Source: Escherichia phage ph0021
Sequence record: OP557970.1
Strand: one strand, 5' to 3'
DNA length: 64,000 nucleotides
Part shown: piece by piece, positions 7,778-18,502 of the stretch
How the letters are laid out: every line of letters starts with the position of its first letter
Position numbering within the stretch: position 1 is the stretch's first letter
Made by a program: the position numbers and the translations under genes
Notes under the pieces: generated by a model
Told to the model about the DNA's origin: nothing
The model's input: the letters and a program-made list of their open reading frames with translations, nothing else
Databases searched by the model: none

Positions 7778-8315
7778 TTACTATTTCCAAAAGTTTATTA
7801 TTTTTAAGGTAATTAGCCTTTTCTAGGACTTCAGAAGCATATTTAGAACCTGCTTTAACATTCCATCCCGAATTATAAGATGATATTGCTTTTCTTATAT
7901 CACCCTTATGTATATTTAACCAATAAGAAAGTTCAATGTACGCCCAGGAAGCTGAATTGGACCGTTTATTCAACATTCTTTTTATTTCAGCATCGGTCAT
8001 ATTATAACCAAGTTCCTTAACTCTTGCTCGCATAGTAGGTAAATAATTTTGGAACATTCCATAAGCGTGATGCTTTGGTTTAGATTTTAAATTAACTCCG
8101 CCAGAGCTTTCTTGCCATAAAATAGCAGCCATTATATGACCTAATCCGCTCTTGTGGATATTTTTGTGTGTTTTATATTTTCCATCCTTAGAAAATTGTT
8201 CCCCGAATTGATACGCGTAACGCATGTTATCGAGTTGGACATTACTGAAAGTATGCTCGGAGCTATGTGCCATCATTGAAATGGCCAATAGACCAGCGAG
8301 TAGTGCTTTTCTCAT
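7770..8315 (-). CDS. Periplasmic lytic-transglycosylase-like protein (SLT-like, vs.1 position)
   Basis: 181 aa; signal peptide; ILWQESSGG ... AYGMFQ ... SSYNSG resemble SLT motifs. Confidence 0.6.
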   Translation of the reverse strand: MRKALLAGLLAISMMAHSSEHTFSNVQLDNMRYAYQFGEQFSKDGKYKTHKNIHKSGLGHIMAAILWQESSGGVNLKSKPKHHAYGMFQNYLPTMRARVKELGYNMTDAEIKRMLNKRSNSASWAYIELSYWLNIHKGDIRKAISSYNSGWNVKAGSKYASEVLEKANYLKNNKLLEIVND

Positions 8316-8322
8316 GCTTACC

Positions 8323-8784
8323 TCATTGAGTTTTAATTACTGCTTTAGAAGCCTTTCCTGGTAAACGACGACTGTTAATAATTGCCATCCTGCATTGAAG
8401 CGACGGGTCTTTGAACTTCGCATTAGGTTTACAAACTGTAAATCCAAGCCAAAGATTTCCATCTGTGATTTCTAAACGTCCAGGACGATATTCAACCCCA
8501 TCAATAAAATCCTCGTCAATGTCAGGACGAAGAGGCATACTCAGGAATTCATTAACTTCTAAAACATGGTCTTTTATTTTATGGAATAATTCAAAAACGT
8601 ATGTCTCATCAATCTCCCGTTGAATTGCACGATCAAGAAGATGTTGAGAATATTTTAGATGAAACGATGAGACCCCTGCTGCTTTTGATGCCTCACGAAT
8701 CTCATTGTTAATTTGACGAAACTCCGACTCAAAGTGACGACGAAGCTTATTTCGACGGATAAAAACTTCTGTGTTGATAGTCAT
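8323..8784 (-). CDS. regB: RegB sequence-specific endoribonuclease
   Basis: 153 aa, same length and position as T4 RegB; sequence recognised. Confidence 0.9.
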   Translation of the reverse strand: MTINTEVFIRRNKLRRHFESEFRQINNEIREASKAAGVSSFHLKYSQHLLDRAIQREIDETYVFELFHKIKDHVLEVNEFLSMPLRPDIDEDFIDGVEYRPGRLEITDGNLWLGFTVCKPNAKFKDPSLQCRMAIINSRRLPGKASKAVIKTQ

Positions 8785-8811
8785 GTTATTCTCCTCTTAA
8801 CTGATAGAAAA

Positions 8812-8841
8812 ATTATACCACAGTCAAGAGGAAAAGTAAAC
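8812..8841 (-). promoter_or_regulatory. Early sigma70-type promoter for regB (GTTTAC, 18 nt, TATAAT)
   Basis: Minus strand GTTTACTTTTCCTCTTGACTGTGGTATAAT, then GAGGAG and ATG at 8784. Confidence 0.6.
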
Positions 8842-8843
8842 AG

Positions 8844-9122
8844 TTATTCTTTAAATCTAATCAATTTATTCATAGACTTTGAAACTTCTGCACGAACCTC
8901 ATGTAGATTTTTGAGCTGTTCAAGGCGCTGCGTATAGTAAGCAATTTCATCTTCTTCGAGGCAGTCCTGTGAATCTTCTTTAAGATAACGTGCATAGTCC
9001 TGGAAAGCTTTACGGACTACTTCCTGGAAATCATCAAGACTTTGAATTTTCTTAGGAGCAACAGATACACGACGAGGGGCAGTATAATACTCATAACCAA
9101 ACCCTGCGCTTAATTGAGCCAT
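8844..9122 (-). CDS. Hypothetical protein (vs.3 position)
   Basis: ORF 8844..9164 trimmed to ATG overlapping the upstream stop (TAATG). Confidence 0.5.
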
Positions 9123-9388
9123 TAATATTTTTCCTCTGGTTGGAACACAGCACGACAAGCCCACATACTAGCTTCTTTGAGTTTCGTTTTAGCAATAGTT
9201 AACTGATCTAGGCTTTCAGCATAATTCTTTGCGAATTCGTAGTCTTCACAATTATCTAGTGCTTCCCAGAATTCATCGTATAAAGCATCAAAGATAAGTC
9301 CTAAACGAACTTCAGCGTCTTTGATAGCATTCACTTTACCGATTTTCTCTTCAGTATGCGGCTTATAACCTTTAATGTCTTCAATCAT
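9122..9388 (-). CDS. Vs.4/Acb2-like protein (candidate cyclic-oligonucleotide sponge, anti-CBASS)
   Basis: 88 aa from ATG at 9388 preceded by GAGGAAG; fourth ORF after regB, the position of T4 vs.4; assignment by position and recall only. Confidence 0.5.
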
Positions 9389-9602
9389 ATTTGACTTCCT
9401 CACCAGTACATAAATCATATTCAACTAAACGAATAGGTTCATGAATGCCATATCCCTGAACAGAAATTTCTGTCGTAGGATAAATTCCATCAATATCACC
9501 CATATTCCACGCTTCGTTAAATTGCTGTTCGCCTGAATTACTAAACCACTCGGCGAAAGCATTTAGCACATCTTTAGAACCTTCAATAATTATCTTTGCC
9601 AT
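9381..9602 (-). CDS. Hypothetical protein (vs.5 position)
   Basis: 73 aa ORF. Confidence 0.5.
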   Translation of the reverse strand: MAKIIIEGSKDVLNAFAEWFSNSGEQQFNEAWNMGDIDGIYPTTEISVQGYGIHEPIRLVEYDLCTGEEVKYD

Positions 9603-9964
9603 TACAAACTCTCGGTGAAGGTACGAGCGATAACGTCGCGCTGCTGTTCCGGAGTCAGAGAGTTAAAGCGAACTGCATAACCGGATACACGGATGGTCAG
9701 TTGCGGATATTTGTCCGGATGCTTAACTGCATCTTCCAGAGTTTCACGACGCAGAACGTTAACGTTCAGATGTTGACCACCTTCAATTTTAACTGTAGGC
9801 TGTTGCTCAATTTCAATTTCACGGGCATGCAAACCATAGAAAATTTCTGGGTCTACAAAAGAGTCCTCTTTAAAGGTTTTAGAAACGATAATTCGTGCTT
9901 GAATACCATCTTCAAAATAAATAGTGCCTTTGTGTGTGCCTTCAAGAATTTGATATGCTTTCAT
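9602..9964 (-). CDS. GrcA/YfiD-like autonomous glycyl-radical cofactor
   Basis: 120 aa; C-terminal [59 protein letters not shown] carries the RVSGYAV glycyl-radical motif. Confidence 0.75.
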
Positions 9965-9971
9965 ATAAACC

Positions 9972-10352
9972 TCAATTAGAAAATAAATTTATCCAAGATT
10001 GTTCTTTAATTAAAAACGGCTCAGAATCATATGCCATTAAACTTTGCGTAATTAATCCTTTAAAAGGTCCATCAATAAATTCCATGGTAAAATACGGAAT
10101 TTTATTCATTAATCTTGCATTAGGAGCAGTGCACAAAACTCTGCATCCTTTAAATACACCTTTTTGTAATTTGTATTGCTTGGGATAAAATTCGCTCAAA
10201 ATGTTATTATTTGCTAAAATTTCAAAATGATTCACCAATTTATTTTTAATAGTTTTTGGCGAAAAATAAAGATATTCGAAAAGCTGAGTGTCTGTCATCA
10301 TTGCATTCCGATTACGAAAAACTGTGGACGAGTAATACCACCAATGCAACAT
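9972..10352 (-). CDS. Hypothetical protein, possibly 3-prime part of a split gene
   Basis: 126 aa ORF overlapping upstream ORF by 55 nt in a different frame. Confidence 0.4.
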
Positions 10353-10837
10353 TTACTATTGCAGCAGTATTGCACAGTTTCAATATGAATATCGTAAATT
10401 TTATCCATATCAGGAGATTTAACAGGCTCATCAATTATATACAAAATTCGTGAAAGCGATAAACCTCTGAACTTGCTACCTCTATTACCAACAAAACTAC
10501 GGACAGAATCAGTAAATAAACGAAAACGTATATCATCATTAGAATAACGCGAAAATTCCTTTTTAATGTTATTTGCAGAAATTTTAGCGTAAGCTGAAGT
10601 ATTAGAAAGAACAATAACTGTTCCGCCATCATACAACCAATTAGCAGCAAAGTTAGTCACAGCAATTGATTTACCGGATTGACGTCCACCATCTATACGA
10701 AGTGTGCAGTACTGTTTAAGTAATTCTTCAAATGGCAGGATATAATCGTTTTTACAGATTTCTTCTACTCTAGCATCAGAATGATGTGTAAAAGCATTCA
10801 TCAGGGATAGATAAGGACCAGTTAAAAATGTTCTCAT
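10298..10837 (-). CDS. P-loop protein (Walker A/B)
   Basis: ORF 10298..10888 trimmed to ATG at 10837 (MRTF...); GGRQSGKS Walker A and ILYIIDEP Walker B. Confidence 0.45.
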   Translation of the reverse strand: MRTFLTGPYLSLMNAFTHHSDARVEEICKNDYILPFEELLKQYCTLRIDGGRQSGKSIAVTNFAANWLYDGGTVIVLSNTSAYAKISANNIKKEFSRYSNDDIRFRLFTDSVRSFVGNRGSKFRGLSLSRILYIIDEPVKSPDMDKIYDIHIETVQYCCNSKCCIGGITRPQFFVIGMQ

Positions 10838-10993
10838 GTTATTTCTCTTAAGGTTTTTGGGCCATTCCGTGGCGCATGAATTGTCCATTTCTGTATTTAC
10901 CCATTACCGCACTCAGGCTCGACCTTATTACAGGTTGGCGGGAATCCCTCATAGAATCATGAGGTCCAGGTTGTTCCCATATTTCTTATTTGC

Positions 10994-11467
10994 TTATTTG
11001 AACGATTTAACGTACTGAATAGAACCTTTACTATTTACAAAGGCAATTTTACCATTTTTATTATACATGGTAGCAGTACGCTGATAGCCATAAGTTTGCT
11101 TACCAGATTGATAACCAACTAATGCAAAATTATCTTCACCCATTTTATTCTGTTTAGCGCGAATACGTTCATGGCCATGTGCCATAAGAACCTTAGCATC
11201 ACCAGTTGCAATGGATCGACGAGTTTTTTCATCTTCAACTGTATTAACAAAATCGTCAAATGAATCAAATTTAGCATGAGATTTATTATACAGTTTTCCA
11301 TCTACTGCATAATTATATCCTTGTACATCCATCTCAACTTCTGTACCATCATCCAATACAGCAGTGATTTTCTGACCTTTTTTAAATTTCAAAAGATCAG
11401 TAAAAGATTCAGCAATAATTTGAGAATTAATAGCTGCTTCAGTGATAAATTCTTGATATGTTTTCAT
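10994..11467 (-). CDS. Internal protein, IPIII-like, with capsid-targeting leader
   Basis: 157 aa; N-terminal MKTYQEFITE with LxE cleavage motif for the gp21 protease; lies just downstream of e as ipIII does in T4. Confidence 0.6.
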   Translation of the reverse strand: MKTYQEFITEAAINSQIIAESFTDLLKFKKGQKITAVLDDGTEVEMDVQGYNYAVDGKLYNKSHAKFDSFDDFVNTVEDEKTRRSIATGDAKVLMAHGHERIRAKQNKMGEDNFALVGYQSGKQTYGYQRTATMYNKNGKIAFVNSKGSIQYVKSFK

Positions 11468-11521
11468 ATGTTTCCTTTAAATATTTTAATTAGTAATTTG
11501 TCTCTTCGAGCAACTGTGAAT

Positions 11522-11551
11522 ATACTATCACAATTCTAGGAGAAAGTAAAC
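11522..11551 (-). promoter_or_regulatory. Early promoter for the IPIII-like gene (GTTTAC, 18 nt, TAGTAT)
   Basis: -35 at 11546-11551 and -10 at 11522-11527 on minus strand, overlapping the 3-prime end of e. Confidence 0.5.
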
Positions 11552-11555
11552 AACT

Positions 11556-12086
<531 letters not shown>

Positions 12087-12542
12087 TTAAAAGAGGCTGT
12101 TCATTATTCGGTAAAGTGAAGGACCCATCACATATTGCCACTGAGTACGAGGAATAAGAGCAAAAGCATCCATCTCTGGAATCATAACGCCATCTTTATT
12201 TTCAAAATAAGACTCGCAATGGCAATTTCTAAACATCTCATGCTCTACTGGAATCGTATAATAAAATAACTGTAAGTCTTTATTACTAGAATATTTAAAT
12301 ACACCTAGGTCTTCTAGAAGGTCTGGATTATAATTGCTAAAACCAGTCTCTTCTAAGCATTCTCTTTTTGCAGCTTCCAGTGCATTCAAATCAGAACTTT
12401 CTACACGCCCCTTTGGAATATCCCAGCGATGTGCCATCATTCCAGGCTTACGAGAACCAGTAACCCGACCCATAAATAAATCTTTATCTTCTGTCATAAA
12501 GATAATACCAGCTGATAGTGTTTTCATTTTAATTTCCTGCAT
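12087..12542 (-). CDS. nudE: Nudix hydrolase NudE (e.1)
   Basis: 151 aa; Nudix box GRVESSDLNALEAAKRECLEETG; position after e as in T4. Confidence 0.85.
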   Translation of the reverse strand: MQEIKMKTLSAGIIFMTEDKDLFMGRVTGSRKPGMMAHRWDIPKGRVESSDLNALEAAKRECLEETGFSNYNPDLLEDLGVFKYSSNKDLQLFYYTIPVEHEMFRNCHCESYFENKDGVMIPEMDAFALIPRTQWQYVMGPSLYRIMNSLF

Positions 12543-17484: not shown

Positions 17485-17560
17485 TGGTCGAGGCAGTAGG
17501 GATCGAACCTACGACCTAGGACTTAGAAGGTCCTTGCTCTTCCTTCTGAGCTATGCCCCG
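17485..17560 (-). tRNA. tRNA-Arg (anticodon UCU), CCA encoded
   Basis: Hand-folded cloverleaf: 7-bp acceptor, GCUCAG D-arm, anticodon loop CUUCUAA, T-loop GGTTCGATC, discriminator A. Confidence 0.8.
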
Positions 17561-17564
17561 TAAT

Positions 17565-17640
17565 TGGGGTGACCGATGGGAGTCGAACCCATGACTACGA
17601 GAATCACAATCTCGAGTTCTACCAACTGAACTACGGCCAC
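17565..17640 (-). tRNA. tRNA-His (anticodon GUG), CCA encoded
   Basis: Hand-folded: anticodon loop UUGUGAU, discriminator C73; no G at -1 encoded (U at -1). Confidence 0.7.
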
Positions 17641-17754
17641 ATTAATACCTACTCCAACAATCAAGATGTCTTCACACGAAATTAAGAGAAGAGTGATCAG
17701 TTCAACCCCTATAATCGCGTCAAGTAGATATTAATGTGACAGTTGTCACAAATT

Positions 17755-17829
17755 TGGCGGACGTGATAGGATTCGAACCTATAACCAATCGCTTAACAGG
17801 CGATCGCTCTGCCATTGAGCTACACATCC
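17755..17829 (-). tRNA. tRNA-Asn (anticodon GUU), CCA encoded
   Basis: Hand-folded: anticodon loop CUGUUAA, discriminator G73, T-loop GGTTCGAAT. Confidence 0.75.
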
Positions 17830-17833
17830 AAAT

Positions 17834-17920
17834 TGGTGGGGAGTGATGGAGTCGAACCACCCGAGTCGCAATGACAATGGATTTACAGTCCACACCGCTA
17901 CCTCTACGGGATAACTCCCC
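17834..17920 (-). tRNA. tRNA-Tyr (anticodon GUA), type II, CCA encoded
   Basis: Hand-folded: anticodon loop CUGUAAA, long variable arm, discriminator A73. Confidence 0.75.
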
Positions 17921-17929
17921 AAATTAATT

Positions 17930-18004
17930 TGGTGGCCCTGGGTGGAATTGAACCACCATCTGGCGATTATGAGTCGCTTGCTTGAACCTTCCAGCTACAG
18001 GGCC
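17930..18004 (-). tRNA. tRNA with CAU anticodon (Ile by analogy to T4, or Met)
   Basis: Hand-folded: anticodon loop CUCAUAA; sits next to tRNA-Thr where T4 has tRNA-Ile. Confidence 0.7.
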
Positions 18005-18005
18005 T

Positions 18006-18081
18006 TGGTGCTGATTGACGGAATCGAACCGCCGACATCCTCATTACAAGTGAGGTGCTCTACCTACTGAGCTAAATCAGC
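18006..18081 (-). tRNA. tRNA-Thr (anticodon UGU), CCA encoded
   Basis: Hand-folded: anticodon loop CUUGUAA, 7-bp acceptor GCUGAUU/AAUCAGC. Confidence 0.8.
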
Positions 18082-18086
18082 AAAAC

Positions 18087-18176
18087 TGGCGGAGGCGATA
18101 GGATTTGAACCTATGAGTCGCCGGAGCGACTGCCGGTTTTCAAGACCGGTGCATTAAACCACTCTGCCACGCCTCC
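18087..18176 (-). tRNA. tRNA-Ser (anticodon UGA), type II, CCA encoded
   Basis: Hand-folded: anticodon loop CUUGAAA, long variable arm, discriminator G73. Confidence 0.8.
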
Positions 18177-18178
18177 AG

Positions 18179-18252
18179 TCTCCGTGGCAGGATTTGAACC
18201 TACGACATTCTGCTCCCAAAGCAGACGCTCTACCAAACTGAGCTACACGGAG
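18179..18252 (-). tRNA. tRNA-Pro (anticodon UGG), CCA not encoded
   Basis: Hand-folded: anticodon loop UUUGGGA; 3-prime end abuts tRNA-Ser 2 nt away (Pro-Ser dimer as in T4). Confidence 0.8.
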
Positions 18253-18262
18253 TAAATTGAAT

Positions 18263-18336
<74 letters not shown>

Positions 18337-18341
18337 AAATT

Positions 18342-18428
18342 TGGTGCGAGAAGTGGGACTCGAACCCACAAGGAAATCATTCCGCAGCATTTTAAGTGCT
18401 GTGCCTTTACCAATTTGACCATTCTCGC
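18342..18428 (-). tRNA. tRNA-Leu (anticodon UAA), type II, CCA encoded
   Basis: Sequence GCGAGAATGGTCAAATTGGTAAAGGCACAGCACTTAAAATGCTG... recognised as T4-like tRNA-Leu. Confidence 0.85.
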
Positions 18429-18429
18429 G

Positions 18430-18502
18430 CTGGGAATAAAGGACTCGAACCTTTGCATCTAGCAGTCAAAGTGCTATGCCTTACCAACTTGGCTAATTCC
18501 CA
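18430..18502 (-). tRNA. tRNA-Gln (anticodon UUG), CCA not encoded
   Basis: Hand-folded: anticodon loop CUUUGAC, U1-A72 pair, discriminator G73; 3-prime end abuts tRNA-Leu (Gln-Leu dimer as in T4). Confidence 0.8.

Follow-up and report, generated by a model that had tools for sequence, protein, structure and literature searches.

The vs.6 locus and its family

The gene described here lies within a 64,000-nt stretch of the Escherichia phage ph0021 record OP557970.1, hereafter the window. It is an open reading frame (ORF) that runs from an ATG to a TAA and coincides exactly with the 120-codon, minus-strand span that an earlier sequence-only reading had marked as coding (Table 1). A Shine-Dalgarno sequence, which overlaps the vs.7 stop codon, is separated from the ATG by five bases, and the stop of the ORF itself forms a TAATG at 9602 in which it overlaps the start of the next gene. 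Judged from this layout, the genes are as tightly spaced as is usual where a phage cluster is co-translated. A scan of positions 8200..12200 for promoters and terminators returned counts as in shuffled sequence (15 vs 14.8; 2 vs 2.0), with no site directly upstream of the ORF.

Table 1. Features of the GrcA-like gene in the window
Feature	Position	Strand	Basis
vs.6 / grcA-like ORF, 120 aa (T4 vs.6/Y06I ortholog)	9602..9964	minus	ORF list, T4 identity, gene order, PHROG 1209
Codons 1-60, phage-type N-terminal half, diverged GrcA homolog	9785..9964	minus	GC3, codon test, alignment, AF2
Codons 61-118, glycyl-radical domain, DNA derived from Escherichia grcA	9611..9784	minus	nt identity, GC3, NJ tree
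RVSGYAVRF glycyl-radical motif, residues 92-100	9665..9691	minus	sequence read
Radical glycine G95, codon GGT	9682..9680	minus	alignment with YfiD G102 and PflB G734
GAGG ribosome-binding site (Shine-Dalgarno)	9970..9973	minus	sequence read

The same reading had likened the C-terminal ~60 residues, with their RVSGYAVRF motif, to host GrcA, and this likeness is borne out, as residues 61-120 are identical to E. coli GrcA at 59 of 60 positions. The Pfam Gly_radical domain (PF01228) is detected with an E-value of 7.5e-18 (65.5 bits, cut-off 22.2). Among solved structures the best relative is E. coli YfiD/GrcA (PDB 6owr; E=2.3e-41, ORF residues 22-120), followed by the C-terminus of the pyruvate formate-lyase (PFL) PflB (residues 697-759; E=1.3e-25), and the last 63 residues of the ORF match both PflB 697-759 and GrcA. 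The similarity therefore covers far more than a few residues, the motif glycine is conserved in all three proteins, and by sequence comparison the resemblance to GrcA and PflB is far beyond chance. When the predicted structure is searched with Foldseek, the 50 best matches listed comprise only YfiD (6owr) and PFL-type C-termini.

Among family profiles, phrog_1209 (PHROG) aligns over the full length, residues 1-120 on its positions 1-121 (E=1.5e-62). The NCBIfam GrcA equivalog model (TIGR04365) scores 154.7 bits (E=1.3e-45, profile positions 25-126 of 126), which is under its cut-off of 170 bits—i.e. a curator's threshold rather than a biochemical feature—because the N-terminal half of the protein has diverged.

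Orthology with T4 vs.6

The ORF is 97.5-98% identical at the amino acid level to T4 Vs.6 (NP_049730.1; NC_000866 63557-63919), which is the protein named Y06I in the biochemical literature. The two proteins have the same length and differ at 3 of 120 residues (Q54 in the window for P in T4, R73 for H, and D84 for E), and their genes differ at 13 nt, 3 of which alter an amino acid. Both genes are flanked by vs.5 and vs.7 within the regB-to-e cluster, and tblastn of the T4 neighbour genes on the window finds order and strand conserved throughout (tk, tk.4, vs, vs.1, regB, vs.3, vs.4, vs.5, the ORF, vs.7, vs.8, e, and nudE). T4 itself has only one GrcA-like ORF by tblastn, with one place taken per record.

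According to two articles that cite Wagner et al. 2001 (PMC8683613, PMC13450708), a spare-part function has been validated for only two proteins, E. coli YfiD and T4 Y06I; in both, the glycyl radical is put on by the PFL-activating enzyme, and both restore the activity of oxygen-cleaved PFL. The proposal of the sequence-only reading, a phage version of such a spare part, is supported, and by orthology with Vs.6/Y06I the window protein would share this function.

Homologs of GrcA are widespread in phages, being found by tblastn in 1,588 of 50,697 phage records. They include T4-like genera (Tequatro-, Mosig-, Jiaoda-, Slopek-, Karam-, and Biquartavirus), T5-like Demerecviridae, and jumbo phages, and further homologs occur in many metagenome clusters; conservation across these groups argues for selection. 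RefSeq names T4 vs.6 and many of its orthologs GrcA, and many of the 1,588 homologs already bear the annotation GrcA or "pyruvate formate-lyase". The finding of the gene is therefore not new, a point that the sequence-only reading had missed: the gene has been described and annotated before, and so has its biochemical role. In itself it contributes nothing further to a case that has been a textbook spare-part example since 2001. In the literature searched, we found no experiment with the window protein or with phage mutants in vs.6.

A radical domain near-identical to Escherichia grcA

At the DNA level, the two halves of vs.6 behave very differently. By BLAST, the 3'-terminal ~185 nt of vs.6 (window 9602..9786) align with grcA in every one of 5,426 complete E. 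coli genomes, the best-matching records showing 95.7% nucleotide identity, while the 5' half gives no DNA-level alignment with E. coli grcA. Over a tract of 174 nt, the window is 96.6% identical to E. coli grcA (six differences) and T4 is identical at 173 of 174 positions (one difference). Codon-by-codon comparison shows that the T4 tract runs from E61 to E118 and is bordered by phage-type codons, four on its 5' side and two on its 3' side, and the mosaic junction falls at the same place in T4 as in the window. The 3' end of the window tract (TTC ACC GAG) is more phage-like than that of T4, which suggests that the tract ends differently in the two phages.

Base composition and codon usage follow the same boundary. 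GC3 is 0.23 in codons 1-60, as in the neighbouring phage genes (0.21-0.27), vs 0.45 in the remainder of the gene, where E. coli grcA has 0.43. Where T4 and E. coli have identical amino acids, they share the codon at 57 of 59 sites in the C-terminal part and at 7 of 17 in the N-terminal part. By the same measure, E. coli grcA shares 47 of 60 codons with Citrobacter and 34 of 58 with Salmonella. In a neighbor-joining (NJ) tree of the tract, Escherichia groups with the window, T4, and a Mosigvirus (bootstrap 97%). When E. coli grcA is searched against phages, 645 records match at ≥90% identity, and every one of the phage matches listed at ≥95% begins at grcA nt 200 and extends through the 3' end.

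On these nucleotide comparisons, vs.6 is a mosaic, in which an old, AT-rich phage sequence makes up codons 1-60 and codons 61-118 are near-identical to Escherichia grcA; the glycyl-radical half is one that, by the same evidence, was overwritten by host grcA through recombination. Such overwriting accounts for the radical half being a near-exact copy of the host part.

Two other origins of the tract are ruled out. Convergence through codon bias conflicts with the many synonymous sites at which enterobacteria with the same protein sequence differ, and with the AT-rich phage codons used in the 5' half of vs.6. T4 and E. coli also share many T-ending codons (CAT, TAT, and TTT), as well as AAG, and these are not known as favoured codons. 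The other candidate, pflB as the DNA donor, is excluded because the residues of the tract are of GrcA type, which makes grcA the donor.

Our literature search found no paper on host-derived grcA tracts; key older T4 literature lies outside that search and may hold an earlier mention. The mosaic origin with host grcA may therefore be unreported.

The N-terminal half

The phage-type half is a recognizable but strongly diverged GrcA homolog. It is identical to E. coli GrcA at 18 of 51 aligned residues (about 35%), shares 10 of 17 codons with it, and is seven residues shorter. In an alignment of 46 sequences, motifs common with bacterial GrcA are found around Q5, A23-R24, K29, E33-D34, and R48-E49.

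AlphaFold2 (AF2) predicts this half as a small beta-sheet domain (pLDDT 87-90), joined to the radical domain by a low-confidence linker at residues 57-65. This predicted order differs from what is known of YfiD, whose N-terminal residues 1-60 are reported as disordered in solution by NMR (PMC8683613, PMC13450708). In YfiD, the N-terminal half is needed for binding to cleaved PFL and for efficient radical installation (PMC8683613). Because this half is both diverged in the phage and important for PFL binding in YfiD, the affinity or the target of the phage protein could differ. Foldseek searches with the predicted beta domain return only weak KOW/SH3-like matches (E 0.1-0.6), none of them significant.

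A second tract in Klebsiella phages

Twenty-one sites of the tract (12%) distinguish E. coli grcA from K. pneumoniae grcA and serve to tell the two donors apart. T4 is E. coli-like at all 21 sites, with none that are K. pneumoniae-like or other. By contrast, a Jiaodavirus-like IMG/VR contig (UViG_2974754850, here L123) is K. pneumoniae-like at 19 of 21 sites, E. coli-like at 1, and different from both at 1. For KP179 the comparison covers the first 96 nt only, where 11 of 12 sites are K. pneumoniae-like, 1 is E. coli-like, and none is other. Over these first 96 nt, the tracts of Klebsiella T-even phages (L004 1681-1863 and L123) are 97-99% identical to K. pneumoniae grcA, the value for L123 being 99%. 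The residues L77 and E81 are also found in both Klebsiella phages examined and in K. pneumoniae GrcA, and are absent from E. coli GrcA.

The K. pneumoniae grcA used here (L178 200-583) was taken from a chromosome misfiled among plasmids; the source record, CP125156.1, is deposited as a 'plasmid', and at 5.37 Mb is evidently the chromosome. In a K. aerogenes record (LR134122.1, L179), grcA appears frameshifted.

E. coli and K. pneumoniae are 12% apart in the tract, and the N-terminal halves of the phages differ by about 25%; a single ancestral event is insufficient to explain both tracts. From the sequences, at least two host-to-phage gene conversions, independent of each other and each ending where homology ends, are well supported. 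This would be a clean, datable case of host-to-phage gene conversion in lytic T-even phages, involving at least two host genera, and could be of modest importance. When Salmonella grcA is searched against the phage collection, no copy exceeds 84% identity, so host tracking is not seen for the Salmonella phages of this collection. Karamvirus, Slopekvirus, T5-like, and jumbo lineages carry older, drifted C-terminal halves.

Relation to the anaerobic ribonucleotide reductase

The sequence-only reading had also suggested a link with the phage anaerobic ribonucleotide reductase (RNR). The window itself does not show such a link, which gains indirect support from gene order in jumbo phages and from the use of formate by class III RNR. 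The genes nrdD and nrdG are encoded elsewhere in the genome, at 80309-82593 of OR584013.1, a record of which part is identical to the window; this is outside the window and 17.4 kb from vs.6, and the window shows no linkage between them. Across the window phage and T4 the distance is 17-20 kb, and the genes are physically linked in neither.

Gene context in other phages is more suggestive. In three related jumbo phages of ~350 kb that infect Yersinia, Klebsiella, and Salmonella (Yersinia fHe-Yen9-03, Klebsiella K64-1-like OR532817.1, and Salmonella MK268344.1), a GrcA homolog sits between nrdD and nrdG. The cluster is ordered nrdD, grcA, (DUF4326), nrdG (L094 3185-6163, L096 3183-5830, and L011 1-3345), and in L096 the GrcA homolog and nrdG share 4 nt. 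Matches to NrdD occur in 2,925 phage records, and these cover every lineage where GrcA is seen, the overlap being at the level of lineages. Literature searches on a PFL/RNR link in jumbo phages, on GrcA in Tequatrovirus, and on auxiliary metabolic genes returned nothing relevant. The nrdD-grcA-nrdG clusters are a modest observation and possibly an unreported one.

A metabolic rationale for this context can be proposed, as PFL is the enzyme that makes formate. In class III RNRs of the E. coli/T4 subtype, both reducing equivalents come from formate (PMC4493059). A PFL that is kept alive would therefore keep the phage reductase supplied, and gene context suggests this route, from GrcA through PFL to NrdD, as a rationale. 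Such a link could explain why lytic enterobacterial phages keep the gene and by what means they secure dNTPs in the low-oxygen gut.

Proposed function and alternatives

We consider it highly probable, at roughly 85%, that vs.6 encodes an autonomous GrcA/YfiD-type glycyl-radical cofactor for oxygen-cleaved host PFL, the radical half of which was overwritten by host grcA. The phage would make the 14-kDa Vs.6 protein in the infected cell, where oxygen would cleave host PFL at its Gly734 radical. Vs.6 would then bind the cleaved enzyme, probably via its N-terminal half; the host PFL-activating enzyme (PflA) would install a radical on G95 within the heptapeptide RVSGYAV, which is present exactly in the window protein, and the C-terminal domain of Vs.6 would replace the lost PFL C-terminus. 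For both T4 Y06I and E. coli YfiD, binding, radical installation, and rescue of PFL have been reported, and we infer them for the window protein by its 97.5-98% identity to Y06I. The presumed benefit to the phage would be a supply of energy and acetyl-CoA, and possibly of formate for its class III RNR.

Comparison with the known proteins fits this reading. The C-terminal domain of PflB (residues 697-759; PDB 1H16, 2PFL) has the same fold and motif as Vs.6, with an rmsd of 2.3 Å over 51 columns in Foldseek. In contrast to PflB, Vs.6 has no catalytic barrel, and where PflB-type sequence reads NREMLLDAMENP...KEQQQDVITRTFTQSM it has GrcA-type residues instead. Like Vs.6, E. coli GrcA/YfiD (PDB 6OWR) is a standalone protein of ~14 kDa; unlike grcA, vs.6 is encoded by a phage, in an early-gene-like cluster.

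Instead of repairing PFL, Vs.6 might be a decoy that soaks up the PFL-activating enzyme or occupies PFL, and so shuts down or redirects host fermentation. The strong divergence from the host of the half that binds PFL in YfiD would suit a decoy, as would the confident folding predicted for it where the YfiD counterpart is reported as disordered. However, the catalytic half is near-identical to the host part, as a working replacement requires, and Y06I is reported to restore the activity of cleaved PFL (PMC8683613), which makes a decoy very unlikely. We hold it just as improbable that Vs.6 serves the phage class III RNR directly and not host PFL, either by replacing the radical part of NrdD after oxygen cleavage or by acting with the phage activase NrdG, as its substrate or partner. 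NrdD is itself an oxygen-cleavable glycyl-radical enzyme, and the jumbo-phage clusters, the 4-nt overlap with nrdG, and the presence of NrdD matches in every phage lineage with a GrcA homolog all speak for such a role. Against it, a spare part must copy what it replaces, and Vs.6 copies the C-terminus of PFL and GrcA; no RNR is found among its 32 PDB sequence matches at E≤0.001 or its 50 best Foldseek matches, and this makes replacement of NrdD unlikely. Structures of T4 NrdD are present in the PDB. The distance of vs.6 from nrdD/nrdG in the window phage and T4 also speaks against a direct role, as does the report, in PMC8683613, that Y06I works with PFL-AE and PFL.

The host-like stretch could also be a neutral by-product of recombination between phage and degraded host DNA, in a gene with no role in infection. 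T-even phages recombine heavily, about 175 nt of homology is enough, and the conversion tracts do end where homology ends. Nevertheless, the ORF is uninterrupted, has a ribosome-binding site, and is translationally coupled; its homologs are conserved in phage records of several families, and conservation of the phage-type N-terminal half extends beyond single genera. Of the 13 nucleotide differences from T4, 3 change an amino acid, and a neutral origin appears to us the least probable of the three alternatives, with hardly any weight left to it.

Returning to the spare-part function for PFL, a broader proposal joins it to the observations above: the radical half of phage grcA would be repeatedly overwritten by the grcA of the current host through homologous recombination, and the spare part would thereby stay adaptively matched to host PFL and PflA. 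The gene would then form part of an anaerobic dNTP module, suggested by the jumbo-phage clusters, in which rescued PFL feeds formate to the phage class III RNR. Taken as a whole this proposal is tentative and we would sooner expect it to fail than to hold, with the adaptive value of the conversions and an operating formate link being conjecture.

Relatives of the window and neighbouring features

The window is 100% identical to part of a record named "Pseudomonas phage PsgM02F" (OR584013.1 72487..8488, reverse complement), for which the deposited host is P. coronafaciens pv. garcae (Pseudomonas coronafaciens), a host that counts against the PFL function proposed above. At ~97% identity the window also matches hundreds of T4-type phages from Escherichia, and E. 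coli Tequatrovirus genomes show this level of identity. Given this identity and the Escherichia-derived grcA tract, the stated Pseudomonas host looks doubtful on sequence grounds.

The surroundings of vs.6 differ from T4 in several respects. A vs.5-like ORF (window 9381-9602) encodes 73 aa vs 58 aa in T4, and the T4 vs.5 protein matches the window in two frames, which indicates a frameshift in either the window phage or T4. For vs.8, too, the match is split between two frames (10301..10846 and 10857..10952), which points to a frameshift or an indel. Relative to T4, denV is absent from window positions 10298-11467, and ipII and ipIII are replaced by one different internal protein of 157 aa (10994..11467), which has a weak N-terminal match to ipII. 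Further along, on the minus strand at 17485-18502, the window carries 11 tRNA genes (Arg, His, Asn, Tyr, Met(CAT), Thr, Ser, Pro, Gly, Leu, and Gln). T4 has eight tRNA genes, so this cluster would hold three more.
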